A DNA stretch of 32,000 nt from NCBI GenBank assembly GCA_045568075.1, contig JBJLBP010000001.1, positions 390,001 through 422,000 on the forward strand. Direction: 5' to 3'. The DNA is from Candidatus Thalassarchaeaceae archaeon (GTDB lineage Archaea; Thermoplasmatota; Poseidoniia; Poseidoniales; Thalassarchaeaceae). The stretch's first letter is position 1. Every line of letters starts with the position of its first letter. The notes beneath the pieces were generated by a model that worked only from the letters and a program-made list of their open reading frames with translations, had not been told where the DNA came from and did not search any database. A program made the translations under genes and the position numbers. This document shows positions 4,713 through 22,796 of this stretch, piece by piece.

Positions 4713-4728
4713 ATCAGGGGGTCCCCGG

Positions 4729-4746
4729 TTCAAGTCCGGGAGCGCG
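4729..4746 (+). repeat. Direct repeat copy 1 (inside the tRNA-Tyr T-loop and acceptor 3-prime half); putative attL
   Basis: TTCAAGTCCGGGAGCGCG is identical to 6632-6649. Confidence 0.7.
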
Positions 4747-4835
4747 GACCAAAGTATTCCCAGTTACTTGGTCAATTACGAACTAAGAACTGAAAAAACA
4801 AGAGACTATAACCCTAGCATTTTCGATAGGAAAGT

Positions 4836-6621: not shown

Positions 6622-6641
6622 CGGACTTTGTTTCAAGTCCG
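6622..6641 (+). terminator. Hairpin CGGACTT-TGTTTC-AAGTCCG downstream of the islet gene, overlapping the tRNA-end repeat
   Basis: A 7-bp perfect inverted repeat with a T-rich loop lies 29 nt after the stop at 6593. A terminator role is only an inference. Confidence 0.3.
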
Positions 6642-6649
6642 GGAGCGCG
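6632..6649 (+). repeat. Direct repeat copy 2 (orphan copy of the tRNA-Tyr 3-prime end); putative attR
   Basis: TTCAAGTCCGGGAGCGCG is an 18/18 match to 4729-4746. It is followed by TT then GACCA, echoing the tRNA GACCA end. No D arm or anticodon arm lies upstream. Confidence 0.7.
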
Positions 6650-7313: not shown

Positions 7314-7361
7314 GCATCCTCGGGAGTAAGTTGATTTCATCCCCGAGTGCGGCAGCCTTCG

Positions 7362-7616
7362 ATGGTCGAGAGCGAAGTCAGTGCGATTCGAGACTTACCG
7401 GTCATTCTGCCGGACGGTCGCCTGCTCGGAACCGTCCACGACACGGTTATCGAAACCGACTCTTGGCGCTGCACTCACATCTTCGTTGCCGACCCTCCAG
7501 CCGACCTAGTTGAAGGCCGAGTTCACGTAGCAATCCCATGGAATTGGGTGAGGTCAGTAGGCGATGTCATCGTCCTTCGATGGTTTCCCCCAACACCAAT
7601 TCCGAAGGACGAATGA
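7362..7616 (+). CDS. PRC-barrel domain protein
   Basis: Small protein with a PRC-barrel-like pattern (LPVILPDGRLLGTVHDTVIETDSWRCTHIFV ... VAIPWNWVRSVGDVIVL). ATG 7362 is preferred over GTG 7347. Confidence 0.6.
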   Translation: MVESEVSAIRDLPVILPDGRLLGTVHDTVIETDSWRCTHIFVADPPADLVEGRVHVAIPWNWVRSVGDVIVLRWFPPTPIPKDE

Positions 7617-7701
7617 TTCAGGTATTCTTCTCACTTCATCGTGAGATTCAACCGAACGTGATTGCGATACGATTCAAAAGGTAGGGGTGAACCCATACTC
7701 G

Positions 7702-10284
7702 ATGCGTCGCATATCCGCCGTGATGATGGTCCTCGTTCTCCTGACCGCGGCAGCACCAGTTATCGATGCTGCAAGCAAGGGTGTGATCTCTTGTACGCCA
7801 GCCGACTTGGAGATGCTTCCTGCTAACTGGGATATCGACGATGGAGCCTGCGTCAGAGTTGATTTGGGCGTCCTATCTCCTGGAGATACGCTTTCCTTCG
7901 ATGTCAACGCGAATACAGATGTTGACTTGCTTCTATTCTCAGCAAGCTCGATTTCCGTCTATCAAAACGAACAAAATTATCGCCATGAAACAGTTTGGCA
8001 GGGCGAGTCTGTATTCGAGTCATTTACTGGAGAAGGCACTTGGCATTGGACCACGCCCGACGATCGTGGCGATACTCGATGGTATCTCGTGCTCGACAAT
8101 ATGGCACACCCGCAGGATCAGGGTAATGGTGCTCAGGGTGGATCTCTGGCTAGTGTAATTCTTGACGTTGAAGAAGTCGATTCACCTGTCTTCGGCGTGG
8201 TTGACACAATCGTTCGCCTCGAAACAGGGGGTCACTCGGTACTCGCAGGTCCTTTGATGCTTGATGAAGGGACTCAAATCAATTTCTTTGCGACAACGAT
8301 GGAGGGGCATCCTGACATTTTCCTCATGACTCAACCCCAACTCGATCTTTACCAGCAAGGTGGAACAGCCGCGACTCGAATCGATGAGACTGACATGTTA
8401 CTGGTTTCTGACGAGCGAACCCTCGCTTGGTCGGTCACATCCGAGTACGCGGGCCAGGATCTCTTCCTCGTCGTCGACAATCGCGCAGGTCCCTCGGGTG
8501 GTGGCGCGGGTACGGGCTATGTCGCGACCACTGTGGTGATGGATTTGGTCCCGGTTCTCAATCCCATGATTACTAATTCATCGACTCTGAGTATAGTCGA
8601 TGTTGGCGCCGAGATTCTTCTCGACGCATCGGAAACACCGAATCTCTCGAATCAGATAGATCGCGAAACAGGATTCCAGTGGGATACCAACGGAGATGGA
8701 TACCACGATACTGCTGGCACTTCGATCATGGTCAGTTGGGACGAGCCGACGCAGATCAGTGTCGGCCTACGCGTCGTCTCCGAGGATGGCCGAAGCGCCA
8801 GTATCTATTTCGACATATCAGTCGAGGATATTTCGCCACCGAGCGTCAGTCTTTCAGCCACCGATACGATACGCAAGGATTTCGATGACCAACTTTTGTT
8901 GACCGCTTCAATCGAGGATAATTGGGGCATTCAAACAGTCGAATGGCTTGTCGATGACGAGGTCATCGATTACTACAGTAATTGGGATTGGCAAGATGGA
9001 AAGACATTCACATTCCGCTTCGATTCATCCTACGAACCCGGCGACCACGAGGTTAAGCTGAGGGTGACTGATAAGGAGAGTCAGATTACTGAAAAGATTG
9101 CAATCATCGATCTTTATGATTCGACTCCACCGATTGTGCCTGAACAGACGGTGGAGATGACAGTGATTTTGGGAGAACCATATCAATTCAACGCTGAGGC
9201 TATGGATGCTGAATCTCCGAATATGCAATTCTACTGGGACTTTGATGCCGAGACGGATAGCGACGACGACGGTATTACCGACAATGATGTAGACGCGAGC
9301 GGTGCAAAGGTCATCCAAGACTTCCAGATTAGAGGCACTATCCAAGTGATTTGCACAGTTGTAAATGATGCTGGAGTTTCAACGCAAGTCACTTACTACG
9401 TGACTGTGCGCTCTCTTGCTGACGACGACTCCGGAATCACTCCAATGGTCATTGCTCTGTTGGCTGTAATTCTGGTTCTACTCTTAGTCGGTGGTGTTGG
9501 CATGATATCGTGGCGCAGAATGTCAAACGCGCGCCTAGAAGCGCTACTCGCCGAGCAGGCCGAAGCCGAGGAAGAAGAACCTCGCGAACTCTCCGTAGAG
9601 GAGCAGAAAGCGATGTTCGGTGCTGGTTCTGTAACAATGGATCAACCCGCTTCGATGTCGACGACATCTCCGTTTGGACAGTATGGCACGGGGATGTCGG
9701 GTGCCAGTGACCCACAGGCGACTATCGGCTCGGATGTGGCGATGGGTGATTCTGACCTTGAGGCTCTGATGAACACACCCGGTCCGATTACCGCAGACGC
9801 ACCATCCAGCCCGGCCGCGGACTTACTCGCTGAATTTGGCGAGGATGATTCGGTTGGCCGAGATGAAATAGTCGAATTTTCACATGATGACGGCGCTGGC
9901 ACCAGCGATGATATTTGGTCACCAGAAGGTGTTGTTGGAGATGAGATGGCAGACGCTTTGCCGGCTCCTCCTCCTCCTGCCCAAGAGCCGGATGCAAATT
10001 CACTACTCGATGATGACCTCCCGACCCCTCCTCCGCCGGTCAGCGAGGATTTACCATCTCCACCAGCACCAGAAGAGGTCGAATCCGATGTGGAAGACGT
10101 AGTGGAAGACGTAGAAGATTCAGAAGATCTGCAAGAATCTGAAGAATCCGAGCCCGAATCCCGACTTGTGCAACAGGATTGTAGCCAGTGTGAGCAGCGA
10201 TTCGAAGTCACACTTCCAGAGGGTCATGATGTTGCTAGGACAGCTTGCCCATCCTGCGGCGCAATTGAGACAGTGAGCCTCTGA
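7702..10284 (+). CDS. Surface protein A: signal peptide, duplicated N-terminal beta module, PKD-like domains, TM helix, acidic/Pro-rich cytoplasmic tail, C-terminal zinc ribbon
   Basis: Signal peptide MRRISAVMMVLVLLTAAAPVIDA (GTG 7687 is the alternative start). PKD-like blocks FQWDTNGDGYHD...VGLRVVSEDG and FYWDFDAETDSDDDGITDNDVD...VICTVVNDAGV. TM helix ITPMVIALLAVILVLLLVGGVGMIS (9436-9510). Tail with PPPP runs and VEDVVEDVED. Zinc ribbon CSQC-x18-CPSC (10180-10257). Confidence 0.85.
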   Translation: MRRISAVMMVLVLLTAAAPVIDAASKGVISCTPADLEMLPANWDIDDGACVRVDLGVLSPGDTLSFDVNANTDVDLLLFSASSISVYQNEQNYRHETVWQGESVFESFTGEGTWHWTTPDDRGDTRWYLVLDNMAHPQDQGNGAQGGSLASVILDVEEVDSPVFGVVDTIVRLETGGHSVLAGPLMLDEGTQINFFATTMEGHPDIFLMTQPQLDLYQQGGTAATRIDETDMLLVSDERTLAWSVTSEYAGQDLFLVVDNRAGPSGGGAGTGYVATTVVMDLVPVLNPMITNSSTLSIVDVGAEILLDASETPNLSNQIDRETGFQWDTNGDGYHDTAGTSIMVSWDEPTQISVGLRVVSEDGRSASIYFDISVEDISPPSVSLSATDTIRKDFDDQLLLTASIEDNWGIQTVEWLVDDEVIDYYSNWDWQDGKTFTFRFDSSYEPGDHEVKLRVTDKESQITEKIAIIDLYDSTPPIVPEQTVEMTVILGEPYQFNAEAMDAESPNMQFYWDFDAETDSDDDGITDNDVDASGAKVIQDFQIRGTIQVICTVVNDAGVSTQVTYYVTVRSLADDDSGITPMVIALLAVILVLLLVGGVGMISWRRMSNARLEALLAEQAEAEEEEPRELSVEEQKAMFGAGSVTMDQPASMSTTSPFGQYGTGMSGASDPQATIGSDVAMGDSDLEALMNTPGPITADAPSSPAADLLAEFGEDDSVGRDEIVEFSHDDGAGTSDDIWSPEGVVGDEMADALPAPPPPAQEPDANSLLDDDLPTPPPPVSEDLPSPPAPEEVESDVEDVVEDVEDSEDLQESEESEPESRLVQQDCSQCEQRFEVTLPEGHDVARTACPSCGAIETVSL
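10090..10113 (+). repeat. 12-nt tandem duplication (GTGGAAGACGTA x2) inside the tail of A
   Basis: Exact tandem copy that encodes VEDVVEDV within the low-complexity acidic tail. Confidence 0.8.
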
Positions 10285-10372
10285 TTCATTTGAATTGAAG
10301 TCGTCCCTCGTCGAGTTCCCGGAACATGGCAAGACGACGCATCAACTACACCTGCCGCCCAAGACCCTAAAT

Positions 10373-10391
10373 CGCACCTCATAGAGGTGCG
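10373..10391 (+). promoter_or_regulatory. Perfect 8-bp hairpin (CGCACCTC-ATA-GAGGTGCG) containing the SD of gene B
   Basis: The inverted repeat is read directly from the sequence. The 3-prime arm GAGGTG (10384-10389) lies 5 nt before ATG 10395, matching the SD spacing seen at other genes here. Confidence 0.55.
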
Positions 10392-10394
10392 CTC

Positions 10395-13300
10395 ATGGAA
10401 CACGGTTCAGTGCGCTTAATCAGCAAAGCGCCGCGAGCCCGAATTTCACTACCAATTCTGATTGTAGCACTATTTCTTCTTCCAACTCTCGCCCCTTTCG
10501 CTGCCGTCAGTGGAGAGGCGAGAATCGAATCTGAGGACTTCGCAATTCTCAATGAGCTCAGCGAAGTCCTCGACCAACGCGAGCAGGTGGTCAGCAGCGA
10601 TACTGTGAGCAAACTTGCTGGACCTTTACTCGATCAAGTTCGGGTCGGTGTACAGGAGACTTCAGTCGCCGATCCACTCCATGATATCGACGAGGCTCTC
10701 GACGAGGTATCAATGGTCGAAACCGCTGCACCACAAGTCATTCATCCCGAACCTTACATCATTCTGACTGACGAAAATAGCCGCCCTCCTGGCGAAGTCA
10801 GAACCATTTGGTCGACTCTTTTCAATCTCACAGATTACGTCATTTGGACACGATATGTAGACGATGAGGGTAATGTCGTCGAGCAATCTGAGACCATAAC
10901 CTTCCTCACATCTCTCCTATCTCTTTTCGACTCTGAGACCGAATTTTTGCTTCATCAGGTCGACATCGACCAGGATGGTGATGACGACATTCAGGTTGGT
11001 CTCAGCATCGAGATCAGTGACCCCGAACTCGATGGAACCACACTTTCAGTCGCGCCTCAACTCGATTACAAGATCAGTGTGCTGCCCTCAAGCATGACTG
11101 ATTCCGATTGGGAAAATCTAGAAACTCTAGAAGTGAGTCTTCTCAAAGCATTCGCGTATTCCGATGGAATCCTTACCGAGGGTGAATCATACGTTTGGGT
11201 TATTGATTCAAAATTCACTCATACACCTTACGATTTCACCCTCGGAGTTGGTCTCGAACGATTCTACTTCGATCTCTCAGAAGCGGGGGCCGATTTCCTC
11301 CTATCGATTTTCAATGCGCTATCCTTCGGCGTGTTCAACGGTGGTGATGAATCTGGAATTACAATCGCTTCAATCGCCGCTCCATACCAGATATCAATAG
11401 ACAATTCCGGCCAGACCGAATGTCCAGATCGCTACTCGCCGATTGAACTCACAACTCTTCCATCCAGTCAAATCTCCTGTGGAGTCACAGCAGGCTTCGG
11501 TTACGTCCACTATTCTCCTCCAAATATCGAAGATGAACGAGATGTCTGGGAGGTGGCCTACATTGAAGCCGCAATTCACCCTAATCGTCTCTCCACCACC
11601 CTCCCTGAACAGCTTGATCTCACAATCCGAACTGATAGCACGATGGCCGACGGCACGGGCAGTGCTGGTGAAAATGGCCTGACAACCGTCGAGTACTGGG
11701 CCGATGAGCGCGCAGACCTCCACATACACTTCCACGAGAACCGCTCAGAGGTTCCACCCGAGAATGCCGATGGAACTTATGGTAACTCAACCGACTCCAT
11801 CGGCTGGCTGCGCGGAATGCCTGCAGGCAGCCTCACCACAGAGGAGATCGATCGCACTTTCACCATGCTCGGTTCAAAGTCCGAGCCTCAACTACCTGGT
11901 GGCCAACCGAATCAACTCGGCCTCATCATCGGTGTCAAGAATTTCACCCGCGATACATCGCAGAACGTCGACGACCCCTCTCTCCCAGTCAATCCAGCAT
12001 ACCCGCCAAAGACTCTCGTTCTGGTAAGGTCAGTCCAATCGCTTGAGGAGGTGGATTATCATTCTTGGATGAAACGTGGTGGCGCGGCCACCGACCATCG
12101 GCGGATCGAAATTACTGCTCAAGACTTACCGACCGCCGTCGTGCTCTTTGGCTCATTTGAGTTAGGTGGGACTGAAGAGGCAGACACAAGTCTCGATTCG
12201 GCACAAAATCTTGATTTCATGTCGAGAATCTTCGATGTTGTCCTGATCAACATAGTCGACCTCTTCCTCGATATCGGCACTATTCTGAACGACATTCCAT
12301 CTGCCACAGTCGACGTCATCAGCGGTGGAGTCGGCGGTTCGGGTGGCCTAACAGGACAGACTCTTCACCTATTGATGAATGATCATTGGAGAGCCGATCG
12401 ACAGGCTAGGTCAATCTCAGAAATCGGCCTGCAGATCGGTTCAAGCTCGCATCCTACGATGCCTGGCGATCATCTGATCCTCGCAAAAGACAGACAGTTG
12501 GAGACAGTTCAAGGGCGTCAGGGTCCGGTGGTGCCGATGGTGGTAGTAGCTGCGAGTTTACGTTTCAGTGGTCTGAGCCAGTTCACTCTTATCGATGATC
12601 TCGAGTCGGAATCCCAACAGGTTTCACTCCTGACTTCGTCGGAAAAACAGTTCTCATTCCTTTACATCGATCACAAACCGAATGATCTCAGCGGCGCAGC
12701 CCATCAAGGCGTCCGAATATCCGATATTCCGGACAATCTCTCCGCCGAACTCACACCCCAACTCGCAACATACCAAGCTAGTTCCTCTATCGATAGTATC
12801 AGTTACACTGGTATTGATGGTGACCAACGGCAGGCGACTCACGTTCTCGATTTGCCTGCCGAGTTTGAGATTGAATTTGGCGATGTGACTACTTGGAGCG
12901 CTTCATCGCCGATTTCTTCCATTCATGCCCAACTCACAGATTCTACAAATCCTGTGACGATGGGCGGCGATCACTTCCTTTTCCATCACGAGCCGTCCGA
13001 TGGTAGCTCGACTATCTCAACTCGTATTTCGGGATTGCAAGAGGTTGGCTGGCGAGCACCAGCCGAACCAGGTGCCAGTGGAGCAATTGGTCGTGGCACC
13101 GCTTTCATGACCGCTGCCGGCGACCGCACGATGAGCATCAATGTCGATCATGCGCCGACTCAGGATGAGGGGGGCTTGTCGGCGCTCGTTCTCATCGATC
13201 CACTTCCATCCACTATCTCGGTCGATATTCCAACGGGAGCCGATGCAGGAAACAGCCTCGTCTTCCCCGAATTGAACACGACTCAAGGTGTCGCTGGCGT

Positions 13301-14762
13301 GGCTTTCTTCCTTGGCGGTTTTGCCGATCTCGGTCGCTCTGTGAACACGGTCCTCGCTGGTGTGACAAGTGAAATTTCGACAGGATCCGATGGTGGCAAT
13401 GGTTCATTCTCTTACGGTCTTCAGCTCGATGCAGACAGTAATTTTGACCTGATTTTCGAAGCCAGCCATGGAAATGGCACTGCGGATGCCCCACCTTGGG
13501 TACACGGAATCGCGCTGAACGCAGCACCTTCAGGAATATCGGATGGCTTCCATATCCGTGGATGGATTCCAGATTTACCTCCGATAATCGATATCTCGGT
13601 CAGTCGAACCCCGACTTCAACCGGTGAAGAATGGGCAATCGCCATGGGTTTGGATGGATGGTTGCCCGCGCGCAGTGAATTCATGCTGAACTCGCGCGGT
13701 ATCAACGGTCAGGACCTGATGATGACACTGCAAGGCTTGACCGTTGGTGAATCAACTGCACTAGGACTCGATTCGGAATTCTTGATCCGAGAAACAAGTG
13801 GTGGGATTACCGAAGTAACAACAACGACTCACTTCGTGATGTCGAATAGACTCGATTGGATTCATGCTCTTCTAATCAATCGAGAGGCCGGCGCACGGAC
13901 GGAGATGCTGATCAATGACATTCCCGAATCCATCGATTTGCGCGCCAGTCTAGGCACGTCCATATCGCTGGATATGACCGTGCCAGATGCATATCGTCGA
14001 GCCGGTCCTGCCGTGGACTCGATGATGATGCAACAGATGCAATGGATGGACGGTTCTTGGTGGCCGGCTACGATTTTCCTGACCGACGTCCCTGACGCGA
14101 TTAATCTCACGACAGAGCCAGATCTCGATTTTGACATCACCAAAAGTCTCGCATTCCAAGGGACTCCTGTACTCGACTTCTCCGCCTCGGCTGATGGAAT
14201 GTCACTCTACATCGAAGCCAACGGCCGCGCTATCAACAGTCGAGGCGAAATCATCCTCCTCGCCGAGGGCATGACCGATCGAATGGTCATCAAACCGACT
14301 GAGGATTATGGTCTCGCGATTCGCAGTGGAGGCGATGGAGTCGATCGAATCTATTTGCGCGCCTCCAATATGCCGACAACTCCTCCTGTTGTCCTCGAAG
14401 AAATGGAGGCGCTTGGCGAGAATTTGCGAAGCGCGACGATTCATGTCATTGAGATAGTCGGCCCATACAGCGTCATTGAGATAGAAGATGTACAAGGTGG
14501 ACGAATCGTTGCATCCGCGCGCGCGACGGCTGAAGTCGAAGCCATTGGTATGACCTTTGATTTGCGTGGCGTTCTACTCGACGCTCAGACCACCGGAGGA
14601 GTACCGACTGGAACCAGTCTTGGGGTAAACGGTCTCGCTTCCGATCTCTCGCTGCTGAATCTAATCCCTGGATTTGAAGGCTCCACCCATCACATAATTG
14701 TCCCGGAGCCTCTCTCATCCGGTGTGCTAACATTCTGCGCTACATTCCTGGGAGGTGACTAA
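10395..14762 (+). CDS. Giant secreted protein B (1455 aa), no recognisable family
   Basis: Uninterrupted 4.4-kb ORF. N-terminal signal/anchor RARISLPILIVALFLLPTLAPFAAVSG. Acidic and Ser/Thr-rich, with a DxDxDG-type loop (DIDQDGDDD, around 10967-11000). No C-terminal TM helix. No catalytic or repeat motif recognised by eye. Confidence 0.85.
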   Translation: MEHGSVRLISKAPRARISLPILIVALFLLPTLAPFAAVSGEARIESEDFAILNELSEVLDQREQVVSSDTVSKLAGPLLDQVRVGVQETSVADPLHDIDEALDEVSMVETAAPQVIHPEPYIILTDENSRPPGEVRTIWSTLFNLTDYVIWTRYVDDEGNVVEQSETITFLTSLLSLFDSETEFLLHQVDIDQDGDDDIQVGLSIEISDPELDGTTLSVAPQLDYKISVLPSSMTDSDWENLETLEVSLLKAFAYSDGILTEGESYVWVIDSKFTHTPYDFTLGVGLERFYFDLSEAGADFLLSIFNALSFGVFNGGDESGITIASIAAPYQISIDNSGQTECPDRYSPIELTTLPSSQISCGVTAGFGYVHYSPPNIEDERDVWEVAYIEAAIHPNRLSTTLPEQLDLTIRTDSTMADGTGSAGENGLTTVEYWADERADLHIHFHENRSEVPPENADGTYGNSTDSIGWLRGMPAGSLTTEEIDRTFTMLGSKSEPQLPGGQPNQLGLIIGVKNFTRDTSQNVDDPSLPVNPAYPPKTLVLVRSVQSLEEVDYHSWMKRGGAATDHRRIEITAQDLPTAVVLFGSFELGGTEEADTSLDSAQNLDFMSRIFDVVLINIVDLFLDIGTILNDIPSATVDVISGGVGGSGGLTGQTLHLLMNDHWRADRQARSISEIGLQIGSSSHPTMPGDHLILAKDRQLETVQGRQGPVVPMVVVAASLRFSGLSQFTLIDDLESESQQVSLLTSSEKQFSFLYIDHKPNDLSGAAHQGVRISDIPDNLSAELTPQLATYQASSSIDSISYTGIDGDQRQATHVLDLPAEFEIEFGDVTTWSASSPISSIHAQLTDSTNPVTMGGDHFLFHHEPSDGSSTISTRISGLQEVGWRAPAEPGASGAIGRGTAFMTAAGDRTMSINVDHAPTQDEGGLSALVLIDPLPSTISVDIPTGADAGNSLVFPELNTTQGVAGVAFFLGGFADLGRSVNTVLAGVTSEISTGSDGGNGSFSYGLQLDADSNFDLIFEASHGNGTADAPPWVHGIALNAAPSGISDGFHIRGWIPDLPPIIDISVSRTPTSTGEEWAIAMGLDGWLPARSEFMLNSRGINGQDLMMTLQGLTVGESTALGLDSEFLIRETSGGITEVTTTTHFVMSNRLDWIHALLINREAGARTEMLINDIPESIDLRASLGTSISLDMTVPDAYRRAGPAVDSMMMQQMQWMDGSWWPATIFLTDVPDAINLTTEPDLDFDITKSLAFQGTPVLDFSASADGMSLYIEANGRAINSRGEIILLAEGMTDRMVIKPTEDYGLAIRSGGDGVDRIYLRASNMPTTPPVVLEEMEALGENLRSATIHVIEIVGPYSVIEIEDVQGGRIVASARATAEVEAIGMTFDLRGVLLDAQTTGGVPTGTSLGVNGLASDLSLLNLIPGFEGSTHHIIVPEPLSSGVLTFCATFLGGD

Positions 14763-14763
14763 T

Positions 14764-15333
14764 ATGGGCTTGTTAGAGAAGATGCGCAATGCCGAGGAAG
14801 AGACTCGAGAGGATATAGACGAGGCCACTGAGCGCGCTCACGAAATTCTGCAAATCGTTGGCGAGCGTGTCGAGCAAGTTCGACCGAGTCGAGTGATATT
14901 CGCCTCGGTCGCCGTTCTGTTGATTGTCAGCGGGATGTTCATCATTGGAACTTGGTTAGTCCCATACGACCGGACGAGCGTAGATGTGGTATACATTCAA
15001 GGGGGCTCTGGTCACGTTGTTTTGGTCGAATTAGACAACAAAGGATCTCGCTCGATAACCGACGTTAATCTTGACATTCGATTCCTCGATGATGCAAGTC
15101 TCGAAATCGGTAGATCTAACTTCCAAGCTGGTGAAATCGCCGCCCATACTTCGATTGCTGGAGACGACTTGGAATTGCTCATCGCCGGCGCTTCAGTCTG
15201 GGAGAATTACACGATTGAAATCATTCTCGATTACACATATGGAGGCGATGATTATCACGAACGCTGGACCTACAATGTCGGTGGGTGGCAGATGGAGATG
15301 TTCACTTACAATGCCCCGATTCACTTCTTCTGA
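14764..15333 (+). CDS. Small single-pass membrane protein C (189 aa) with a beta-sandwich-like ectodomain
   Basis: ATG lies 1 nt after the TAA of B, and GGAGGTGA (14751-14758) lies inside the end of B. The protein has an acidic helical N-terminus (EKMRNAEEETREDIDEATERAHE), the TM helix VIFASVAVLLIVSGMFIIGTWLV, and a ~125-aa domain with a CARDB-like strand motif (VLVELDNKGSRSITDVNLDIRF). Confidence 0.8.
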   Translation: MGLLEKMRNAEEETREDIDEATERAHEILQIVGERVEQVRPSRVIFASVAVLLIVSGMFIIGTWLVPYDRTSVDVVYIQGGSGHVVLVELDNKGSRSITDVNLDIRFLDDASLEIGRSNFQAGEIAAHTSIAGDDLELLIAGASVWENYTIEIILDYTYGGDDYHERWTYNVGGWQMEMFTYNAPIHFF

Positions 15334-15350
15334 CACGACCTACGGTCGTG
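15334..15350 (+). promoter_or_regulatory. Hairpin H1: CACGACC-TAC-GGTCGTG
   Basis: A perfect 7-bp inverted repeat with a 3-nt spacer starts on the base after the TGA of gene C. Confidence 0.5.
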
Positions 15351-15375
15351 ATTCAAGACCATCCATCCAACCCGA

Positions 15376-18300
15376 ATGCTGAAAGGCGACTCAATGGGGC
15401 AGCGACTCATGACCAAACGCATCGCGGTTGCGATACTCGGGATTTTCCTCCTATCTCTCGCTCCGGCTGGTGGGGTTCATGTTGAGTCAACTGGGGATTC
15501 GGAGGAAATACTGGACCCAGTTGTGAATCGTATTGGGATTGCACCTGATCCAGATTCAATCCAAGATCTTGGTTCACCACGAGTCCTTGAGGGTCTCGAG
15601 AGGACTCGTGAGAATACGGCCGACTCTACAATCGGCGTTTACACCGAACTCGGCCTCATTCCATCGGTTCACTTGCCACGAGCTCTAGCTGAGCCTCGAA
15701 GCGACTTGGCGATGGTTATCGTCGATGGAGATGTTGGCATCTGGGATGCTCGTATTGCTGTCGAGGAAGCGGCTGATGTTGAGATTCGCTCGACAATTCC
15801 TCCATCGGGATTCCTCGTGCAGGGTGATGAAAAGCAGATTTCATTGCTCGCTGAGGAATCGATAGTAGTCGCAGTCCACTCTGTCTCGTCCGGCCTGCTC
15901 GCCCATCCGCTTCTGCGGCTGGTCGAAGAAGGCCCGATGATGGTCGAGTTGCTCGGCTGGAAGGATGACGAATTACAACGCCACGCCGAGCCAGGCCTCG
16001 GTCTGGAAGATTCGTTAGAAGCAGTTGCAGAACTTTGGTTGACCGATTCATGGAGCCCAGAAGAGGGGCGTGTATGGGGCGTCGTTGATATCTCCGATAT
16101 CGGCAGTGTCCTACAGCACCCCTCAGTCGCTTGGGTTGCGCCGCTACCGGTGCTAGAAACCAAAAATGACAATGCCCGAACCCACATGGGAATCGATACG
16201 GTCGACTCCTTCTTCGTCACTGATCTAGATGGCTCCGGCCAAACTGTTGCCGTCGGCGATTCGGGCATTGACCATGATCATGGGGATTTCAACAACCGAA
16301 TCGTCGGTCGAACTTCTGTCACCCCTGGAGATTCCTCGACCGCTGATCCATCGGATGGTCACGGAACCCACGTGGCTTGCACAGTGCTGGGTTCCGGAAT
16401 GCGCAGCAGCGGGACTTACAACGGCGTCGCTCCCGGTGCTAGCCTCTACTTCCAAGCAATGGAGGATGATGACACAGGTGCTCTCTACAGTTACGGCATT
16501 AACAGCATGTTGAATTCTGCTTACAATGCTGGTGCCCGCCTGCACACCAATAGCTGGGGAGCGGGCAGTGGACACGGATCATATTCGACCCAGTCCGAGG
16601 ATGCGGACGACCGCACCTCGACTTGGGATCAATACTGGAGTCACGAGGGTATGACTGTGCTCTTCGCGGCTGGCAACGAGCGTAATGACGGAGTTTCACC
16701 ACCTGGTACTGCGAAGAATGTCATCACAGTTGGTGGCCACAAGAATCGCTACAGTGGCTCTCCTGACGAGATGTATTACTGGAGTAGCCGCGGTCCAACT
16801 GACGATGGCCGTCTCAAGCCCGACCTTGTAGGACCGGGAGACGGTGTTCGATCTTGCCTCGCTCAAGAGGCTCAGGATGCAGATTCAGGATGGTCAAACA
16901 ACTGGTACATCGAGTACAGCGGCACTTCCATGTCGACTCCAGCCGCTGCCGGAGCCGCCGCCCTCGTGCGCGAGTATCTGATGGAAGTGGCAAATCGACC
17001 GGCTCCACAGGGTGCTTTGGTCAAGGCACTCCTGATTCTTGGCGCCGAGGACATGGGAAATCGTAACATTCCGAATAATGACGAGGGCTGGGGAAGAGTC
17101 AATCTGATTAATTCACTCATCCCCGATAGCGACGAAGGTATCTTCGTCGATGATCGTAGTAGAATTCGAAGTGGCGAGACCCAAGAATACACCTTCGAAA
17201 TCACTCGCGCTGGTGAGCCTCTGAAGGTGGTCCTCGCTTGGTCGGACTATCCTGGTTCATCATCTTCAAGCAATCAATTACGTAACGATTTGAATCTTGA
17301 AGTGATTCATCCGAGCGGTGGAACTACCTACAAAGGAAATGTCTTCAATTCAGGGCGTTCAATCGCTGGTGGCTCCTTCGATTCAAAGAATAATGTCGAG
17401 GTTGTTCTAGTCGATAATGCCGCTGTCGGGACATGGACTGTCCGTGTCAAGGACGATTATCACGGCGGCAGCCGCACCTGGCAGCCATTCGCTCTCGCGG
17501 TTCGTGGAGTGAACGTCAACGATCTCTCACCAGACCCAACTTTTGCTCCTGATGTATCGGTTACTCCAACCATTCCTCAGATTGGAGACTCGGTTCAGAT
17601 TGGAATCACTCTCGAGAATCTAGGAGCAGGATCTGTCTCAGATCTCGAAGTAATGGCGCGTGCAGATGGGTCTCACATCTCGACCCAAACCATCTCTATG
17701 ACTCCGGGTGAATCGGTCGGAATGACTTGGAATTGGACACCGACAAGCGAGGGACTGATAGATCTGTCATTCCACATTGATCCAAACGAACTTGTCGACG
17801 AATCCAACGAAGGAAATAACCTACTCACACACACAGTAATCATCAGTGCACCCGGAGTTCGAGTGACTTCGGATGAACCATTCATGACTCTTGGGGAGGC
17901 TGACGACAGCTCAACCACTTGGTCACTTACTCTGACGAATACCGCCCTCTTCGAGACCAATGCAACAATCGAAGCCTCCTCTCCTATTCGACAGAGCGAT
18001 GGCCTCGAATTCGATTGGTTCTACTCTTTCACATCGAATACGTTCAACCTGCTGGAAGCGGAATCTGTTGAGATTGGATTCACTCTGATCCATCCAGCTC
18101 CTCCGCAGCCTGGAACCTATGTCATGACGATTACAGGAACTGATGTCGAGAATGAGATTGAATCGATGCTCGACATCTACTTCGAGGTGCCCATTCTTGC
18201 AGCCGCCGATGTTGAAATCACATCAGGCCAAGTCCAAGTCAGTCCAATTTCTAAGACTCAAATTCAGGTCTTCGTAACCAATGTGGGCAATGGCCCTCAG

Positions 18301-19896
18301 ACCTACGATGTCGAACTCAGCTCTCCTGCGGGCTGGCACCTCGGCCTCGACGTGCTCGGAGCCTTCGCAGGTTCCTCACACGGCTCGACTGGAACTCTCT
18401 TCGTCGGCGAGCGCCGGACAATTGACATCACGGTGAATCCACCCGGCGCGATGATCCCAGCCGGCTCGGTATTCGACGCCGGCTTGACGATCCATTCTCG
18501 CGTCAGTAGTGATTCTTGGTCGGTACCGATTCCTCTCGAGGTCATCATCATCGACCAACTTTCGACCACACCAATCAGTGATGGCATTGAGCACGAAGTC
18601 TCGCCCGATTCGACTCTCGTGCTCGATATCGATTTCCTCAACAACGGTAATCGAGACCTGACGATGACCCCGTATTCGCGAGGTATCCCATCGGGTTGGA
18701 CTGTAGTAGGAGGTCTTGACACACTCTTCGCACCTACCGGCTCAACGACTAGTTGGTCGGTGACTCTGCAAGGCAATGGCAGGGCGACCAGCGGCGACTT
18801 CAAGCTCCGCTTCGCCACTGATGACGGCTTCGCTATCGACTGGAACAGAACCATCGATGTCCTCTCAGCCGCGATACCCGCTCTGACTTTCCACCAAGTC
18901 GTTCTTGGCGACGGCACATCTGCTGACACACCACTAGGAGTCGGAGCCCATCCCGTCGGAACAGGCTTCGATTTGGCTTGGGAGGTCGAGAATGAAGGTA
19001 CCTCAACTTGGAAGCCGACCACGAGTATCATCATCCCTGAAGGTGATTGGTTGGGGACTTGCCCAACTACACCATCCTCTCTCGCTCCCGGCGCGAGTAG
19101 CATCATTTGGTGCACCGTGACGATTCCACTATCGGCTGAGGCCGGGAGTGAACCATACGTCACTCTCAGGATGGAAGGCGAAGGTATCGAGATCGAGAAT
19201 TCGATCTCGCTACGCGTAGACTCTGTCTCCGCGGTGACTTGGAATCTGCGAACCCAAGCCCAGGCACACGAGGGCTACCCTATCCAGATGACTGTGGATA
19301 TTCAGAACGTTGGTAATGCGCAAGTGAATCATCGCTTAGATGTCACAGCACCATCTGGCTGGAACGTCTTCATCAATGACGAGGTCCTAGTCATTCTGAG
19401 TCCCGGCGAATCACGTTCGATCGTCATTGAATTCACCCCCAATGCTGGCAGCGATGGAATCATCGAGATGTCACTTCGCTATGGCGAGGACATTCAGGGG
19501 TCCACCTTCTCCTTCGATGTCGATGTGATGCCCGGTAAGGGCGGTGATAGCAGCCTTGGTTCAACACTCATTCCAATCTTCTTCATCCTCATTATCGCAA
19601 TCATCGGTGGGGCCGGATTCTATGTCTTCAAGCAGCGCGGAGGCAAACTCGATTCCATCATCTCAAAAGAGGCTGTGAGCAAGATTTCCGAGTCGCTGAA
19701 ACTTAGTGAAGAAGAGAGCGGATCTGGTATCGAATGTTGGGTTTGTAGTCGTGATATATTCGAGGGTAAAGCTCACGCTTGTGGCAATTGTGGAGCCCGC
19801 TATCACCAAGCCGGACAGATTCGAGGATGCGATATCCTCTCCGTTGGCCGCTGTTTGCACTGTAACGCAGATTCGAGCGAGCTCGTCGAGGCTTGA
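15376..19896 (+). CDS. Membrane-tethered subtilisin-like serine protease D (peptidase S8) with a long repeat stalk and a cytoplasmic Cys/His zinc-finger-like tail
   Basis: Catalytic triad motifs: VAVGDSGID (Asp, 16258-16260), DGHGTHVA (His, 16360-16362), SGTSMSTPAAAGAAAL (Ser, 16927-16929), plus the oxyanion HTNSWG. P-domain-like block LAWSDYPG...LRNDLNLEV...NNVEVV...GTWTVRV. CARDB signature DESNEGNN. At least five repeats of the type VTNVGNG...SPAGW. TM helix 19561-19629. Cys/His module 19735-19863. Alternative starts at 15394 and 15409. Confidence 0.9.
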   Translation: MLKGDSMGQRLMTKRIAVAILGIFLLSLAPAGGVHVESTGDSEEILDPVVNRIGIAPDPDSIQDLGSPRVLEGLERTRENTADSTIGVYTELGLIPSVHLPRALAEPRSDLAMVIVDGDVGIWDARIAVEEAADVEIRSTIPPSGFLVQGDEKQISLLAEESIVVAVHSVSSGLLAHPLLRLVEEGPMMVELLGWKDDELQRHAEPGLGLEDSLEAVAELWLTDSWSPEEGRVWGVVDISDIGSVLQHPSVAWVAPLPVLETKNDNARTHMGIDTVDSFFVTDLDGSGQTVAVGDSGIDHDHGDFNNRIVGRTSVTPGDSSTADPSDGHGTHVACTVLGSGMRSSGTYNGVAPGASLYFQAMEDDDTGALYSYGINSMLNSAYNAGARLHTNSWGAGSGHGSYSTQSEDADDRTSTWDQYWSHEGMTVLFAAGNERNDGVSPPGTAKNVITVGGHKNRYSGSPDEMYYWSSRGPTDDGRLKPDLVGPGDGVRSCLAQEAQDADSGWSNNWYIEYSGTSMSTPAAAGAAALVREYLMEVANRPAPQGALVKALLILGAEDMGNRNIPNNDEGWGRVNLINSLIPDSDEGIFVDDRSRIRSGETQEYTFEITRAGEPLKVVLAWSDYPGSSSSSNQLRNDLNLEVIHPSGGTTYKGNVFNSGRSIAGGSFDSKNNVEVVLVDNAAVGTWTVRVKDDYHGGSRTWQPFALAVRGVNVNDLSPDPTFAPDVSVTPTIPQIGDSVQIGITLENLGAGSVSDLEVMARADGSHISTQTISMTPGESVGMTWNWTPTSEGLIDLSFHIDPNELVDESNEGNNLLTHTVIISAPGVRVTSDEPFMTLGEADDSSTTWSLTLTNTALFETNATIEASSPIRQSDGLEFDWFYSFTSNTFNLLEAESVEIGFTLIHPAPPQPGTYVMTITGTDVENEIESMLDIYFEVPILAAADVEITSGQVQVSPISKTQIQVFVTNVGNGPQTYDVELSSPAGWHLGLDVLGAFAGSSHGSTGTLFVGERRTIDITVNPPGAMIPAGSVFDAGLTIHSRVSSDSWSVPIPLEVIIIDQLSTTPISDGIEHEVSPDSTLVLDIDFLNNGNRDLTMTPYSRGIPSGWTVVGGLDTLFAPTGSTTSWSVTLQGNGRATSGDFKLRFATDDGFAIDWNRTIDVLSAAIPALTFHQVVLGDGTSADTPLGVGAHPVGTGFDLAWEVENEGTSTWKPTTSIIIPEGDWLGTCPTTPSSLAPGASSIIWCTVTIPLSAEAGSEPYVTLRMEGEGIEIENSISLRVDSVSAVTWNLRTQAQAHEGYPIQMTVDIQNVGNAQVNHRLDVTAPSGWNVFINDEVLVILSPGESRSIVIEFTPNAGSDGIIEMSLRYGEDIQGSTFSFDVDVMPGKGGDSSLGSTLIPIFFILIIAIIGGAGFYVFKQRGGKLDSIISKEAVSKISESLKLSEEESGSGIECWVCSRDIFEGKAHACGNCGARYHQAGQIRGCDILSVGRCLHCNADSSELVEA

Positions 19897-19898
19897 AC

Positions 19899-19918
19899 CG
19901 CGACCCTACGGGCTCGCG
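19899..19918 (+). promoter_or_regulatory. Hairpin H2: CGCGACCC-TAC-GGG(C)TCGCG
   Basis: An 8-bp stem with one bulged C starts 2 nt after the TGA of gene D. A second small hairpin follows (CCCT-TAG-AGGG, 19929-19939). Confidence 0.45.
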
Positions 19919-19959
19919 TGGCCCGAAGCCCTTAGAGGGGCCCGATTCTCGGCAGAGCG

Positions 19960-22644
19960 ATGAATCGTGCTGCTTTGGCCCGTTTGCTGACGGTTCTGCT
20001 TCTTGTCACGATGCTCTCTCCTATGGTTCAGGCTGAGGTTGATCCACGTTTGACAGCGAGTCCGATGGCTCAGGAAGCCGACGCAGATGAACCAGCTGAG
20101 TACGATATCACCGTTCACAACGATGGCGACGATGATATGGCCGTATCTCTGAGCACTTCGCAAGACGCATCGGATTGCAATGGATTCAGTTCCTCAATCG
20201 AACAGGTCTCGGGTACCATAGGTTCTGGTGAATCTGAGACTGTCACACTCACAGTGACCGTTAACGATCAAGCCAATGGTGAGTGTGAGACAACTGTCCA
20301 AGCGACTGCACAAGTCGCTGATGGAGCGCCAGGTACTCCGAAGAATGCCGATATCACAGTCACCACCACCGCCGGAGACGGCGGTGGACTCTATGCAGTC
20401 AAACTCTCGACCGATGAACCGAGTGTCGATTATGATGGAGACGACGATATCGTTTGGGAGGTCGAGGTGGAGAATACCGGTGAACAGCAGGCGAATGTCC
20501 AACTCGAGATGACTAGTGAGGATGATTGCGAGTCAGACGATCTCACAGCAACCGTCGATCCAGCGGTAGTACAGCTTGAATCCGGTGACAAGGAAACAGT
20601 CGACGTGACAGTCGAAATTCCCGACGGTAGTTCCACCGAGGCTGGTCAGCACTGTTTCCTATTGAGGGCTGAAGTCACCAACGACCCCAATCAAGCCGAC
20701 CGAGCCGGAGACAATCTAACTCTCAGTCTCAATATTCCAGAAGTCAAGGAGTGCGACGGATCTCTTTCAACCACATCTCACAGTCTCGATCCATTTGAGA
20801 CAGCGGAGAATAGCTTTGAAGTCGAAAATACGGGAAATACCGAGTGGACTGTTCAGATGCAAGCCCAATCGCCGGGAACCGACATCACGGGTTGGGTTGA
20901 GTTTGATAGCCCGAAGACAAAATTACTCGCCAAACCCGGTAATTCCGACGATAGCCACACCTTCACATTCTCAGTGACTCCTGATGATTCAGCCGAAGCC
21001 GGCTCTCAGATTGAAATCAAGATTCAAGGACGTTCGAACCAAGGCGTCGGCTGCGAACAGATTCTCACAGTCACAATCGGTCAAGTTCATGATGCGAAAT
21101 TGACCCTCAGTACATCGAAACTTTCCAATGTAGAACCGGGGAGTTCAGATTCAGTCACTTTGACGGTGGAGAATCGCGGTAATGGGCTCGATACCTTTTC
21201 TCTGACTACGATTGACCTCCCTGAAGGTTGGCAAATTTCATTCTCTCAATCTTCGGTCACCGTCAACAGTCGTCATGATTCTAACAACAAGGTTTCTCTG
21301 ACCGCCACAATCAATGTCCCTGCAGATGCTCTCGCGGGCGATAACACGATTGAATTCGGCGTGACTGTTAGTGGTTCGACGACTATTCTAGCCAGCAAGG
21401 TTCTGACGGTATCGGTCGCGGCAAGGCACGACCTGACAGCTGATATGCTCTCAACTCAGCAGACGGGTCGCTCAGGGCAGGTCGTCCAGTTCCCGATAGA
21501 TATCACGAACACCGGGAATATCCGTGATACGTTCAAGCTCCAAGTCTGCGATCCGAGTGACCAGACAGGATGCAATCCTCCGATGTGGGCTGCGTCTTAT
21601 TCTGACACAAATGGAAATTCAATTTCGCAGTTGATTCTTGATCCTAGCGAGTCTAAGCGAGTCTTCCTCGATGTTACCGTCGAGGGTGAGGAAGACGCGG
21701 ATTCAGTCACAATTCTCTCACGCGTGGCGATATTTGGAACCAGCGAGAAGGTCGAGCATACGATTAGCGTGATCGTATCAAACTACGATTACGGCATGGC
21801 AATCTCGCCCGAAATGCCGGGTCCGATAGCCGGGCAGCTCGACGTTGTTCTACCACCAGGTGGAGTCACAGAAATCAATTTCTGGCTCGAGAATACAGGT
21901 AATTTCCCCGGCGGAGATAAAGCCGTCATATCGATGGCGGGAATGGAATCATCGGTTCTGAGGAGTGTTCTGATCGATGGCGTGGTCGTCAATGATAACA
22001 TCCCAGTTCCATCTGGTGATCGCGTTCTCATTACGATTCAACTCGAGGTACTGGAAGGTGTGGGAAGTGGAACTACTGGCGTGATAAAGATCAGCGCTTC
22101 CTCCGAGAAGAATGCTGCTGAGAGCACCTCAGTTGATCTCGCCTTCGAGGTCAGGACAATCCATGATTTGCAATTCACACTCGAAGGCGAAGAGGATGCG
22201 ACGACGGATGAGAAAACCAGTGTTGAGTTCATTTTGTATGTGACTAATCATGGAAACATCGTCGAGACAGTCCAGATCCTAACAAGCGATTCTCTCCGTG
22301 GATGGACGGTCAATGTCATCCCTGACGAATTCCAACTCTCACCTGGGAACTCTCGAACCATCACAGTGAGGGTGACTCCTCCGGCGGGGATGATCCAAGA
22401 TGACACCTATAGATTCACCATCACAGTCCAGCCCAAGGGCATGCCCGTAGCGGGCGAACCCCTCGATCTCGAAGTAACTGCTGAGGTCTCCCCTGGACTC
22501 AACTGGCTGAGCGAGCAGAACGAGCAGATTCTGGTTTACGGATTGACAGGCATTGGGGCTCTGCTCGTCGTCATTCTCTTCTTCCGCTCGCGCACAGAGA
22601 ACCGTCGTATCATCGAGGCGCTCGAGCACGAATCGAGCGACTGA
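19960..22644 (+). CDS. Surface protein E: signal peptide, ~7-8 tandem NEW3/CARDB-like beta-sandwich repeats, C-terminal TM anchor (COG1470-like architecture)
   Basis: Signal peptide MNRAALARLLTVLLLVTMLSPMVQA. Recurrent motifs VENTGEQQANV, VENTGNTEWTV, VENRGNGLDTFSL...LPEGWQISF, ITNTGNIRDTFKL, LENTGNFPG, VTNHGNIVETVQI...LRGWTVNV. TM helix ILVYGLTGIGALLVVILFF (22528-22584) followed by RSRTENRR. Confidence 0.85.
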   Translation: MNRAALARLLTVLLLVTMLSPMVQAEVDPRLTASPMAQEADADEPAEYDITVHNDGDDDMAVSLSTSQDASDCNGFSSSIEQVSGTIGSGESETVTLTVTVNDQANGECETTVQATAQVADGAPGTPKNADITVTTTAGDGGGLYAVKLSTDEPSVDYDGDDDIVWEVEVENTGEQQANVQLEMTSEDDCESDDLTATVDPAVVQLESGDKETVDVTVEIPDGSSTEAGQHCFLLRAEVTNDPNQADRAGDNLTLSLNIPEVKECDGSLSTTSHSLDPFETAENSFEVENTGNTEWTVQMQAQSPGTDITGWVEFDSPKTKLLAKPGNSDDSHTFTFSVTPDDSAEAGSQIEIKIQGRSNQGVGCEQILTVTIGQVHDAKLTLSTSKLSNVEPGSSDSVTLTVENRGNGLDTFSLTTIDLPEGWQISFSQSSVTVNSRHDSNNKVSLTATINVPADALAGDNTIEFGVTVSGSTTILASKVLTVSVAARHDLTADMLSTQQTGRSGQVVQFPIDITNTGNIRDTFKLQVCDPSDQTGCNPPMWAASYSDTNGNSISQLILDPSESKRVFLDVTVEGEEDADSVTILSRVAIFGTSEKVEHTISVIVSNYDYGMAISPEMPGPIAGQLDVVLPPGGVTEINFWLENTGNFPGGDKAVISMAGMESSVLRSVLIDGVVVNDNIPVPSGDRVLITIQLEVLEGVGSGTTGVIKISASSEKNAAESTSVDLAFEVRTIHDLQFTLEGEEDATTDEKTSVEFILYVTNHGNIVETVQILTSDSLRGWTVNVIPDEFQLSPGNSRTITVRVTPPAGMIQDDTYRFTITVQPKGMPVAGEPLDLEVTAEVSPGLNWLSEQNEQILVYGLTGIGALLVVILFFRSRTENRRIIEALEHESSD

Positions 22645-22766: not shown

Positions 22767-22783
22767 CGGTCCCTACGGGACCG
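22767..22783 (+). promoter_or_regulatory. Hairpin H3: CGGTCCC-TAC-GGGACCG
   Basis: A perfect 7-bp inverted repeat with a 3-nt spacer ends 13 nt before the nuoA ATG and sits just upstream of the AGGTG SD. Confidence 0.5.
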
Positions 22784-22796
22784 TCAGGTGTCAGCG

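Follow-up and report, generated by a model that had tools for sequence, protein, structure and literature searches.

The stretch analysed here, 32,000 nt of contig JBJLBP010000001.1 (the window, in whose coordinates all positions are given), comes from an archaeon of Marine Group II (MG-II; Poseidoniales, MGIIb) and carries at 7687-22644 five open reading frames (ORFs), A to E, all on the + strand and together spanning 46.7% of its length (Table 1). An earlier note, made from the letters of this DNA alone, had described the five as a co-directional module filling about 47% of the window, and their sizes, coordinates and gaps were re-derived identically: the A-B, B-C, C-D and D-E spacers are 110, 1, 42 and 63 nt, provided C starts at ATG 14764, and base composition is even over the whole span. 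The housekeeping flanks were likewise found as claimed, with genes for HisRS, FtsZ (- strand), a TPR protein, L15e and a PRC-barrel protein upstream of A, and nuoA, nuoB and more nuo genes downstream of E. All five are real genes: B has more than 300 full-length relatives, and orthologues of the whole set occur in 67-77 loci. Alignment of orthologues together with upstream motifs indicated that three ORFs called from their first start, A, D and nuoA, are probably overextended; likely starts for A and D are given in Table 1, and that of nuoA (called at 22701) is Met33 at 22797, with an AGGTG Shine-Dalgarno (SD) sequence in front of it. Hydropathy places a signal-like segment at the N-terminus of every product but C, and one transmembrane (TM) helix near the C-terminus of A, D and E (residues 580-612, 1390-1420 and 855-877, respectively); C has a single TM helix (residues 44-72, numbered from its GTG start) with positive charge on the N side. 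This supports the topologies proposed earlier for A, D and E (signal plus C-proximal TM) and for C (N-in, single-pass). All five products are envelope proteins.

Table 1. Genes A-E and the sequence elements within and between them (window coordinates; BRE, B recognition element; aa, amino acids).
Feature	Position	Strand	Remarks
Gene A	7687-10284	+	865-aa ORF; likely true start ATG 7702 (Met6)
BRE/TATA-like element before B, CAAGACCCTAAAT	10360-10372	+	CCCTAAAT at -30 to -23 of the ATG
Palindrome GCACCTC-ATA-GAGGTGC	10374-10390	+	Perfect 7-bp palindrome between the TATA-like element and the ATG of B
Gene B	10395-14762	+	1455-aa ORF
First hydrophobic helix of B	~12200-12375	+	aa ~603-660; from conservation and model
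Second hydrophobic helix of B	~13290-13410	+	aa ~965-1005; from conservation and model
SD for C, GGAGGTGA	14751-14758	+	Perfect; within the last codons of B (…L-G-G-D-stop), before ATG 14764
Gene C	14755 or 14764-15333	+	192 aa (GTG 14755) or 189 aa (ATG 14764)
Hairpin CACGACC-TAC-GGTCGTG	15334-15350	+	GC stem-loop directly 3' of the C stop
Gene D	15376-19896	+	1506-aa ORF; likely start 15394 (Met7) or 15409 (Met12)
GC hairpin after the D stop	19899-19918	+	From spacer alignment
Element before E, CGAAGCCCTTAGAGGG	19924-19939	+	CCCTTAGA at -31 to -24 of the ATG of E
Gene E	19960-22644	+	894-aa ORF
Stem-loop CGGTCCC-TAC-GGGACCG	22780-22796	+	In front of the likely nuoA start

B was found in at least 166 species-representative genomes, and 80 loci, all from MG-II metagenome-assembled genomes (MAGs), were kept, in which gene order was judged by tblastn of A-E and the flanking genes as far as each contig reaches. 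The order L15e-PRC-A-B-C-D-E-nuoA-nuoB was present in 80 of 80 MGIIb loci wherever the contig extends, at identities of 34-93% for A, 49-95% for B, 42-95% for C, 41-95% for D and 45-97% for E, and orthologue lengths are fixed (B, median 1460 aa; D, median 1497 aa; E, 886-904 aa in 67 orthologues). Three divergent Poseidoniales lineages, L086, L093 and L092, in which B is 33% (on a 3.0-Mb contig), 41% and 32% identical, respectively, also retain A…B-C-D-E-nuo: the A-E arrangement is intact in L093 and L092, and in L086 four unrelated genes stand between A and B. The A-B-C-D-E order noted in the window thus holds among its relatives. B-C-D-E is uninterrupted in every Poseidoniales locus seen, insertions being confined to the PRC/A and A/B intervals, and A is the least tightly linked and most variable of the five. 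The original MG-II reference genome has the D orthologue, MG2_0429, between L15e (MG2_0423) and nuoB (MG2_0433), by the eggNOG seed numbering of a published annotation table. The called spacers in L092 are -4, 8, 8 and 5 nt, which likely downstream starts would widen to 30-50 nt. The functionally unrelated flanks, L15e/PRC and nuoA/B, are as syntenic across the 80 loci as A-E, so conservation of order alone does not prove that A-E work together. Labelled relatives of B come from Thalassarchaeaceae, Poseidoniales or Thermoplasmatota MAGs. No description of the A-E cluster was found in the literature searched, in agreement with the earlier note, whose author knew of no described system with this composition.

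More distant relatives of B were sought by an exhaustive HMMER search with B residues 256-1455 against 1.84 billion representatives, which returned 182 proteins of 1250-1840 aa in tiers at 35-43% and 21-26% identity. Nine independent distant contexts were inspected (L081, L082, L083, L084/85, L086, L087/88, L089, L090 and L091), and each has, next after the B-like gene, a small ORF, 148-244 aa long (111 aa in L083, where the contig ends), at distances from an 8-nt overlap to 37 nt, and of no more than 20 nt in eight of them. These small partners are one family (MAFFT alignment, 8 sequences) with a common build: a variable cytoplasmic N-terminus, one TM helix and then, directly, a ~120-aa beta domain with a CARDB-like N-x-G-T/S motif. 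Likeness to C was detected even next to a B relative of 22% identity (tblastn, E = 4e-6). A, D and E are not adjacent to the distant B-C pairs, apart from L086, where B-C-D-E-nuo is intact, and L082, where an A-like gene lies upstream of B-C on a short contig that stops just past the small partner. The distant pairs have housekeeping genes as neighbours (among them FtsZ, Spt5, L11, Pus10, Sua5, MetAP and LonB). The L090 contig encodes a LonB with 80-84% identity to proteins of 'Thermoplasmata archaeon', which places this lineage, the one context of the nine so placed, in Thermoplasmatota outside Poseidoniales. The presence of B-C without A, D and E in distant contexts makes the A-E module a composite one.

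The B-C junction itself is as tight in MGIIb (median -2.5 nt, 76 loci), and the SD for C lies inside the coding sequence of B. An SD core is present at 63 of 77 B-C junctions compared to 17% of random 45-nt windows, and the GGAGGTGA 7-mer at 28 of 77 compared to 0.7%; an SD is present at most distant B-C junctions as well. Because the genes abut or overlap, with the SD inside the end of B, and because this recurs in the distant contexts, B and C are demonstrably arranged for co-transcription and translational coupling, as a trait of the family, and they are the only pair among A-E shown as coupled. A physical B-C complex would follow naturally, and, as the two genes are translationally coupled everywhere, it is plausible that B is held at the surface by C.

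Relatives of B are nearly constant in length (1453-1472 aa in the more than 300 full-length proteins) and evenly conserved along the chain with almost no indels, in which B differs from fast-evolving adhesins; internal repeats were looked for and none were found. B belongs to no family in Pfam or NCBIfam, and profiles built from either close or distant members found no relative in the PDB. Modelled with AlphaFold2 (AF2) as two halves, using 24-sequence alignments, its C-terminal half (residues 720-1455; predicted local distance difference test, pLDDT, 63.8; predicted template-modelling score, pTM, 0.61) is an up-and-down meander of ~45 strands plus one helix, and its N-terminal half (residues 36-780; pLDDT 54.5) has ~110 helical or disordered residues followed by beta blocks. 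Foldseek searches of both halves against the PDB and BFVD gave no match at E <= 0.001, and weak matches to LptD, TonB-receptor and usher proteins were dropped as local beta-meander similarity (TM-score <= 0.13). In the predicted structure, B is an exported beta-rich protein without a fold assignment.

The earlier note had B as secreted and unplaceable, and both parts stand, given its signal-like N-terminus and the want of any family or fold, but it missed a conserved C-terminal tail: H-x-[IVL]-[IV]-P-[EAD]-P-x-[ST]-[ST], followed by 10-15 hydrophobic residues that close the protein. The motif, H-x-I-I-P-E-P-x-S-S in the B of the window, is family-wide, from 100% down to 21% identity, and the MGIIb proteins end in …GGD. 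It is a family signature that could be an anchor, a processing site or an element for docking C. In having P-[EAD]-P ahead of a hydrophobic stretch it recalls the PEP-CTERM/exosortase and PGF-CTERM/archaeosortase A signals, and it differs from them in that the stretch, at 10-15 residues, is below TM length and comes with no basic cluster; no sortase-like gene was seen in any locus. A PGF-CTERM assignment based on 'IPGFEG' near the end of B was dropped, the F not being conserved and no hidden Markov model (HMM) matching. Also conserved are a D[YF]G-containing helix after the signal, the pair Cys343/Cys362, a calcium-loop-like motif DxDxDGDxD at residues 190-198, and two hydrophobic helices, IFDVVLINIVDLFLDIGTIL and GVAFFLGGFADLGRSV, which interrupt the beta-rich body and are each followed by a Gly-rich, low-confidence loop. 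Oligomerisation and membrane contact are conceivable roles for these helices. H-x-H-x-H-E (residues 443-448), considered as a metal or catalytic site, was dropped as a family-defining feature since it is not conserved in distant relatives. From its constant length, near lack of indels, even conservation, absence of repeats, all-beta prediction and tail motif, B looks structural.

The ectodomain of C matched no Pfam family at permissive thresholds, and a profile search of all PDB sequences gave no credible match to C. Its likenesses are weak: to CARDB in one of seven family members (E = 0.014), to FxLYD (E = 0.027) and, as a hint, to DUF3426, the last two being bacterial families that combine a zinc ribbon, a TM segment and a beta domain. 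Neither B nor C thus falls into a Pfam or NCBIfam family or has a PDB relative, and the pair lies outside well-characterised families, those of S-layer proteins included, as had been supposed.

D carries a Peptidase_S8 domain (PF00082) at residues 286-573, matched over the full profile (1-288) with 156.8 bits against a cut-off of 21.8. Among 70 orthologues the triad D295, H329 and S518 is invariant and the oxyanion residue N392 is 99% conserved, the motifs at the catalytic residues being VGDSG, GHGTHVA, HTNSWG and GTSMSTP. Residues 265-693 (nt 16168-17454) align to KP-43 of Bacillus (1WMD, E = 4e-71) and to SubHal (5FAX, E = 4e-70); the alignment to 1WMD takes in chain residues 2-418 of 434, and hence both the catalytic domain and the C-terminal beta-barrel, with D-H-S and the oxyanion Asn intact. 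The intact S8 triad reported earlier is therefore upheld, whereas the 'P-domain-like block' reported with it turns out to be the KP-43-type C-terminal beta-barrel, the match to the proprotein-convertase P-domain being weak (E = 0.0026, below cut-off). KP-43 itself, at ~434 aa, is secreted as a soluble enzyme; in D, the order is signal peptide, pro-region (no Pfam family at permissive thresholds), S8 plus beta-barrel, a stalk of ~700 aa of immunoglobulin (Ig)-like domains (CARDB 74.2 bits, NEW3 38.9 bits), TM helix and Cys-rich cytoplasmic tail. The tail (residues 1454-1496) has seven cysteines, which are present in ~75% of MGIIb orthologues and absent in L092. By these marks D is a membrane-tethered subtilase of the KP-43 type, predicted to be catalytically intact.

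Large S8 proteases that degrade extracellular protein at the archaeal surface are known in Pyrococcus (pyrolysin) and in the S-layer of Staphylothermus (STABLE, tetrabrachion), where the STABLE protease is physically attached to the S-layer protein. D is like them a large S8 protease displayed at an archaeal surface; it differs in being anchored by its own TM helix past an Ig stalk, in its Cys-rich cytoplasmic tail in MGIIb, and in a catalytic region closest to Bacillus KP-43, and its association with a coat is one that we infer. Extracellular S8 peptidases have been reported in all MG-II MAGs, at one to four per genome (PMC6864105), and S08A subtilases dominate the extracellular peptidase transcripts of MG-II (PMC5069720); in both studies they were treated as single genes. 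The 'highly transcribed subtilase' of Damashek et al. was considered as a possible D and is a different gene (558).

E is made of ~8 Ig-like domains (NEW3, CARDB, FixG_C and HYDIN Ig types) between a signal peptide and a C-terminal TM helix with a short tail, and eight of its cysteines are 99-100% conserved. It scores above the cut-off of the NCBIfam choice-of-anchor T model (NF041740; 112.9 bits against 70, in four matched stretches), with which it shares signal peptide, Ig repeats and C-terminal TM, and it matches the PACE-CTERM putative S-layer model weakly; from surface proteins of these kinds it differs in its single sequon and moderate expression. E and the stalk of D show weak co-linear similarity (25% identity over 406 aa, E = 1e-5) and are of the same Ig module class. 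The NEW3/CARDB-like repeats that had been proposed for D, E and possibly C are thus present in D (CARDB, NEW3) and E (NEW3/FixG_C/HYDIN), with C offering only the weak match given above.

A consists of a signal peptide, an ectodomain of ~550 aa and a TM helix, followed in the cytoplasm by an acidic tail of ~230 aa that is of low complexity and closes with a CxxC…CxxC zinc ribbon. The PKD-like domains attributed to A score above the gathering threshold at residues 482-574, both marginally (PKD_4, 27.9 bits against 27; PKD, 25.0 against 23.5), and PKD was also called on the A orthologues of L086, L092 and L093; the first ~300 aa, described as unplaced, matched no Pfam family at permissive thresholds. 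Pfam matches to the zinc ribbon are weak, and its cysteines (832, 835, 854 and 857) are 99-100% conserved in 70 orthologues, compared to 20-30% for the tail before them, and are kept in L092. This conserved cytoplasmic ribbon implies a cytoplasmic partner for A. Two cytoplasmic zinc-binding tails had been proposed: that of A is borne out, but that of D is restricted to about three-quarters of the MGIIb orthologues and missing in L092. Ribbons of the CxxC…CxxC type recur in the data, at the C-terminus of A (order-wide), at the C-terminus of D (MGIIb only) and at the N-terminus of the C-like protein of L081 (7214-7864).

Simple TATA patterns revealed no canonical TATA box and oligo-T is almost lacking over 6.5-23.4 kb, and the promoter-like elements described here were found by comparative alignment of the spacers across loci. 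In front of B, 43 of 69 loci have CAAKACCCTWWAK beginning at -29 or -30, in a spacer that otherwise diverges. The palindrome that follows this element is found a single time in the window, where 0.13 occurrences would be expected, and most of the loci shown have essentially the same arms around a variable 3-nt loop. The left arm mimics an anti-SD and the right arm an SD, so that the palindrome may be either a protein-binding (transcription-factor) site over a leaderless start or an SD-sequestering RNA hairpin. In the hairpin 3' of C the stem is essentially constant and the loop varies in close loci (one stem substitution, in L008), and other lineages have a different sequence at this site that still forms a hairpin, which would serve as terminator or stabiliser; the hairpin 3' of D likewise keeps its stem while the loop varies, and other lineages again have a hairpin of changed sequence there. 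A GC-rich stem-loop is present in every intergenic gap. A promoter-like element, ACCCATAYNCTCAAA, lies ~30 nt upstream of D. For E the element is CGAAGCCCTTAGAGGG, which in 43 of 68 loci begins at -31, within a D-E spacer that is nearly constant in length (quartiles 60-67 nt) and has 71% GC, compared to ~52% for the window.

An A/T motif is also found at -29 to -22 of Met6 of A. An A/T 6-8-mer at about -30 to -23, with no SD, precedes the TPR gene, orf273, A (from Met6), B and E, and GGAGGTGA stands in front of the internal genes C, nuoB and orf330; leaderless first genes and SD-led internal genes are the classic archaeal pattern. B is an ambiguous exception among the SD-less first genes by virtue of the palindrome arm GAGGTG. 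Given that B, D and E each have a conserved element in front and that hairpins follow the stops of C and D, the transcription units are most likely A, B-C, D, E and nuo. B-C has the marks of a single operon; for the set as a whole, the elements and hairpins in MGIIb speak against one operon and the L092 gaps speak for it. A published Red Sea supplement of transcription start sites has no entry for the A-E locus.

Transcription in the field could be followed in a published annotation and coverage table, where the cluster corresponds to genes 394-398 of SIMO Bin 19-2, an O1-genus MAG; the data are sparse (seven samples visible), and FN66 and FN71 are the informative samples. Coverage in FN66 and FN71, respectively, was 0.17 and 0.11 for A, 0.13 and 0.10 for B, 0 and 0.08 for C, 0.13 and 0.04 for D, and 0.17 and 0.20 for E, compared to 0.15-0.26 and 0.06-0.20 for nuoA-C, 1.24 and 0.33 for L15e, 1.73 and 0.40 for S27e, and 6.79 and 2.07 for L44e. 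Transcripts of A, B, D and E are therefore present in situ in both samples and those of C in one. Their levels are mid-range and resemble one another, and that paper's top 5% expressed includes none of the five. Enrichment in N-glycosylation sequons, looked for as an S-layer signature, was absent.

With somewhat better than even confidence, we read the A-E region as a composite cell-envelope locus of MG-II built around an ancient B·C module, and not as a demonstrated single machine; the weights given to this and the other readings are separate judgements, not meant to sum to one. B, a large protein that is nearly all beta and is tightly and evenly constrained along its length, would be exported through its N-terminal signal. 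C would be made from the same mRNA through the SD inside the last codons of B and would place its one Ig-like domain immediately outside the membrane, where C, together with the IIPEP motif and hydrophobic tail of B, may hold B at about 1:1 as a structural element of the surface coat; these contacts and the coat role are what we infer. To this pair Poseidoniales would have added D, E and A. D, anchored by its TM helix and held off the membrane on ~7 Ig-like domains, would digest extracellular protein; E, whose Ig modules of the same class form a TM-anchored array of fixed length, probably shares the surface with it as a coat or spacer protein; and A would display its PKD domains at the surface and, as its zinc ribbon implies, have a partner in the cytoplasm.

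In logic, not in sequence, such a B·C pair would be S-layer-like. The adjacent, co-transcribed genes for SlaA and SlaB in Sulfolobales provide the comparison, membrane-anchored SlaB tethering the larger SlaA. B·C shares with them the combination of a ~1,400-aa beta-rich exported protein with a smaller membrane-anchored partner encoded by the adjacent gene. The differences are that no sequence relative of B or C was found among PDB chains in the profile search, that B has no fold match at the quality of its model (Foldseek against the PDB, none at E <= 0.001), that expression is moderate, and that C has 150-245 aa, an N-terminal TM helix and one membrane-proximal Ig-like domain, whereas SlaB is a C-terminally anchored coiled-coil stalk.

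Several observations weigh against this reading or parts of it. The ectodomain of C begins right at the membrane, stalkless, unlike SlaB, and eight B tails from across the family gave no match to NCBIfam sorting signals at E <= 10. Confidence in the AF2 models of B is low to moderate, so its 'unknown fold' may in part reflect model quality. Genes for classic S-layer proteins usually rank with the most strongly expressed; for B and E, coverage is ~0.1-0.2, like that of complex I and 10-50 times below that of ribosomal proteins, and sequons are not enriched (nine in B, one in E), and mid-range expression with low sequon counts argues mildly against a classic, hyper-expressed S-layer role for either. 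Most MG-II mRNA reads have been assigned to hyper-expressed genes for disordered proteins (PMC5069720). The promoter assignments are drawn from sequence, and the palindrome before B could equally be an RNA hairpin in a longer transcript; the called gaps of -4 to 8 nt in L092 favour co-transcription in that lineage.

The last point bears on the proposal of the earlier note that all five proteins form one envelope machine, a substrate-capturing scaffold round a tethered protease, with B held by C and the zinc tails of A and D leading to a cytoplasmic factor. Its foundations in part hold, as B and C are coupled and the order is kept: B-C-D-E is contiguous throughout the order, even where B is 32% identical, the called spacers in L092 are minimal, transcript levels of A, B, D and E are similar, the lengths of B, D and E are fixed, the stalk of D and E are built from the same modules, and all five products are in the envelope. 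Yet the L15e/PRC and nuo flanks are equally syntenic, B-C occurs without adjacent A, D and E in distant contexts (L086 and L082 apart), four genes part A from B in L086, promoter-like elements precede B, D and E with hairpins after the C and D stops, and the zinc tail of D is absent in L092 and in ~25% of MGIIb orthologues. A single five-protein machine is on this evidence unlikely.

We are similarly doubtful of the reading in which A-E are neighbours only, that is, independent surface proteins kept together through a syntenic Poseidoniales backbone with no functional link other than B-C. The equal conservation of the housekeeping flanks, the separate promoter-like elements and the restriction of the association of D and E with B-C to one order all fit it, as does the treatment of MG-II extracellular S8 genes (one to four per genome) as stand-alone peptidases (PMC6864105). 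Against it, B-C-D-E is never broken in the Poseidoniales loci seen, although PRC/A and A/B insertions occur, the spacers in L092 are tight, and the stalk of D resembles E, with lengths fixed.

B·C might also be the founding example of a so far unrecognised type of two-component envelope system found across uncultured Thermoplasmatota, extended in MG-II by D, E and A into a protein-capturing and -degrading apparatus, which we regard as improbable in this full form. If true, B would have a new fold, would be anchored or sorted by an IIPEP-hydrophobic signal of its own kind and would dock on a small bitopic Ig partner, C; on the apparatus would rest the protein-based heterotrophy of an archaeal group that ranks among the most abundant in the ocean. 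Least probable by a clear step is that B is a functional beta-sheet device, whether it conducts lipids or solutes along a groove, forms a pore, inserts into membranes or fuses them, and that C serves it as receptor or assembly factor. While B has a long up-and-down beta meander, two conserved hydrophobic helices with Gly-rich loops, a hydrophobic C-terminal tail, moderate and not very high expression, and weak Foldseek lists made up mostly of LptD, TonB-dependent, usher, FadL and BamA-type sheets, those matches are insignificant (E >= 0.008, TM-score <= 0.13), we know of no second membrane in Marine Group II-type archaea, and no transporter or energy-coupling gene accompanies B-C in the distant contexts.

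As a composite envelope locus, A-E takes up ~15 kb of a streamlined genome and is found in at least 166 species-level genomes; it is real and important to its lineage. What is known in kind here is the two-component logic of archaeal surface layers and the envelope-tethered subtilase, and what is new is the undescribed protein families behind them. The B and C families have no annotation, solved relative or fold assignment and are candidates for the Poseidoniales envelope, and the locus suggests how MG-II cells present the extracellular S8 activity seen in field transcriptomics. In cultured Thermoplasmatales, a dense surface protein layer has been seen by cryo-electron tomography, with its proteins not assigned (PMC12448462). 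The B·C pair offers a tractable target for further study of the Poseidoniales surface.

Some features around the locus deserve mention. The PRC-barrel protein (89 aa, 7347-7616) is invariably encoded between L15e and A, with FtsZ (3344-4489, - strand) close by; small PRC-barrel proteins have lately been tied to FtsZ-based archaeal division. FtsZ also adjoins the distant B-C pair in L089 and sits upstream of the cluster in L093, and a link between the division machinery and the envelope genes is possible. Between the PRC-barrel gene and A, L086 (3481-4605) and L093 (5981-7102) have a gene of the metallo-beta-lactamase fold, which in L093 also matches Anti-Pycsar Apyc1; MGIIb has no such gene at that position. 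A 157-aa ORF upstream of HisRS (649-1122) matches the GtrA/DPMS TM domain (29.0 bits against a cut-off of 26.1), a family tied to the handling of glycan-lipid carriers, and may bear on surface glycosylation.

Rfam places a tRNA at 4648-4748 (56.4 bits), which probably contains an archaeal intron, since it is ~30 nt above standard tRNA length and was missed by ARAGORN. Its 3' end, TTCAAGTCCGGGAGCGCG (4729-4746), has an exact 18-nt copy at 6632-6649, and the two copies flank the TPR gene (4836-6593); this repeat is the footprint of an integration into the tRNA gene. The TPR gene was detected in just 9 of 80 related loci, at varying distance from L15e.

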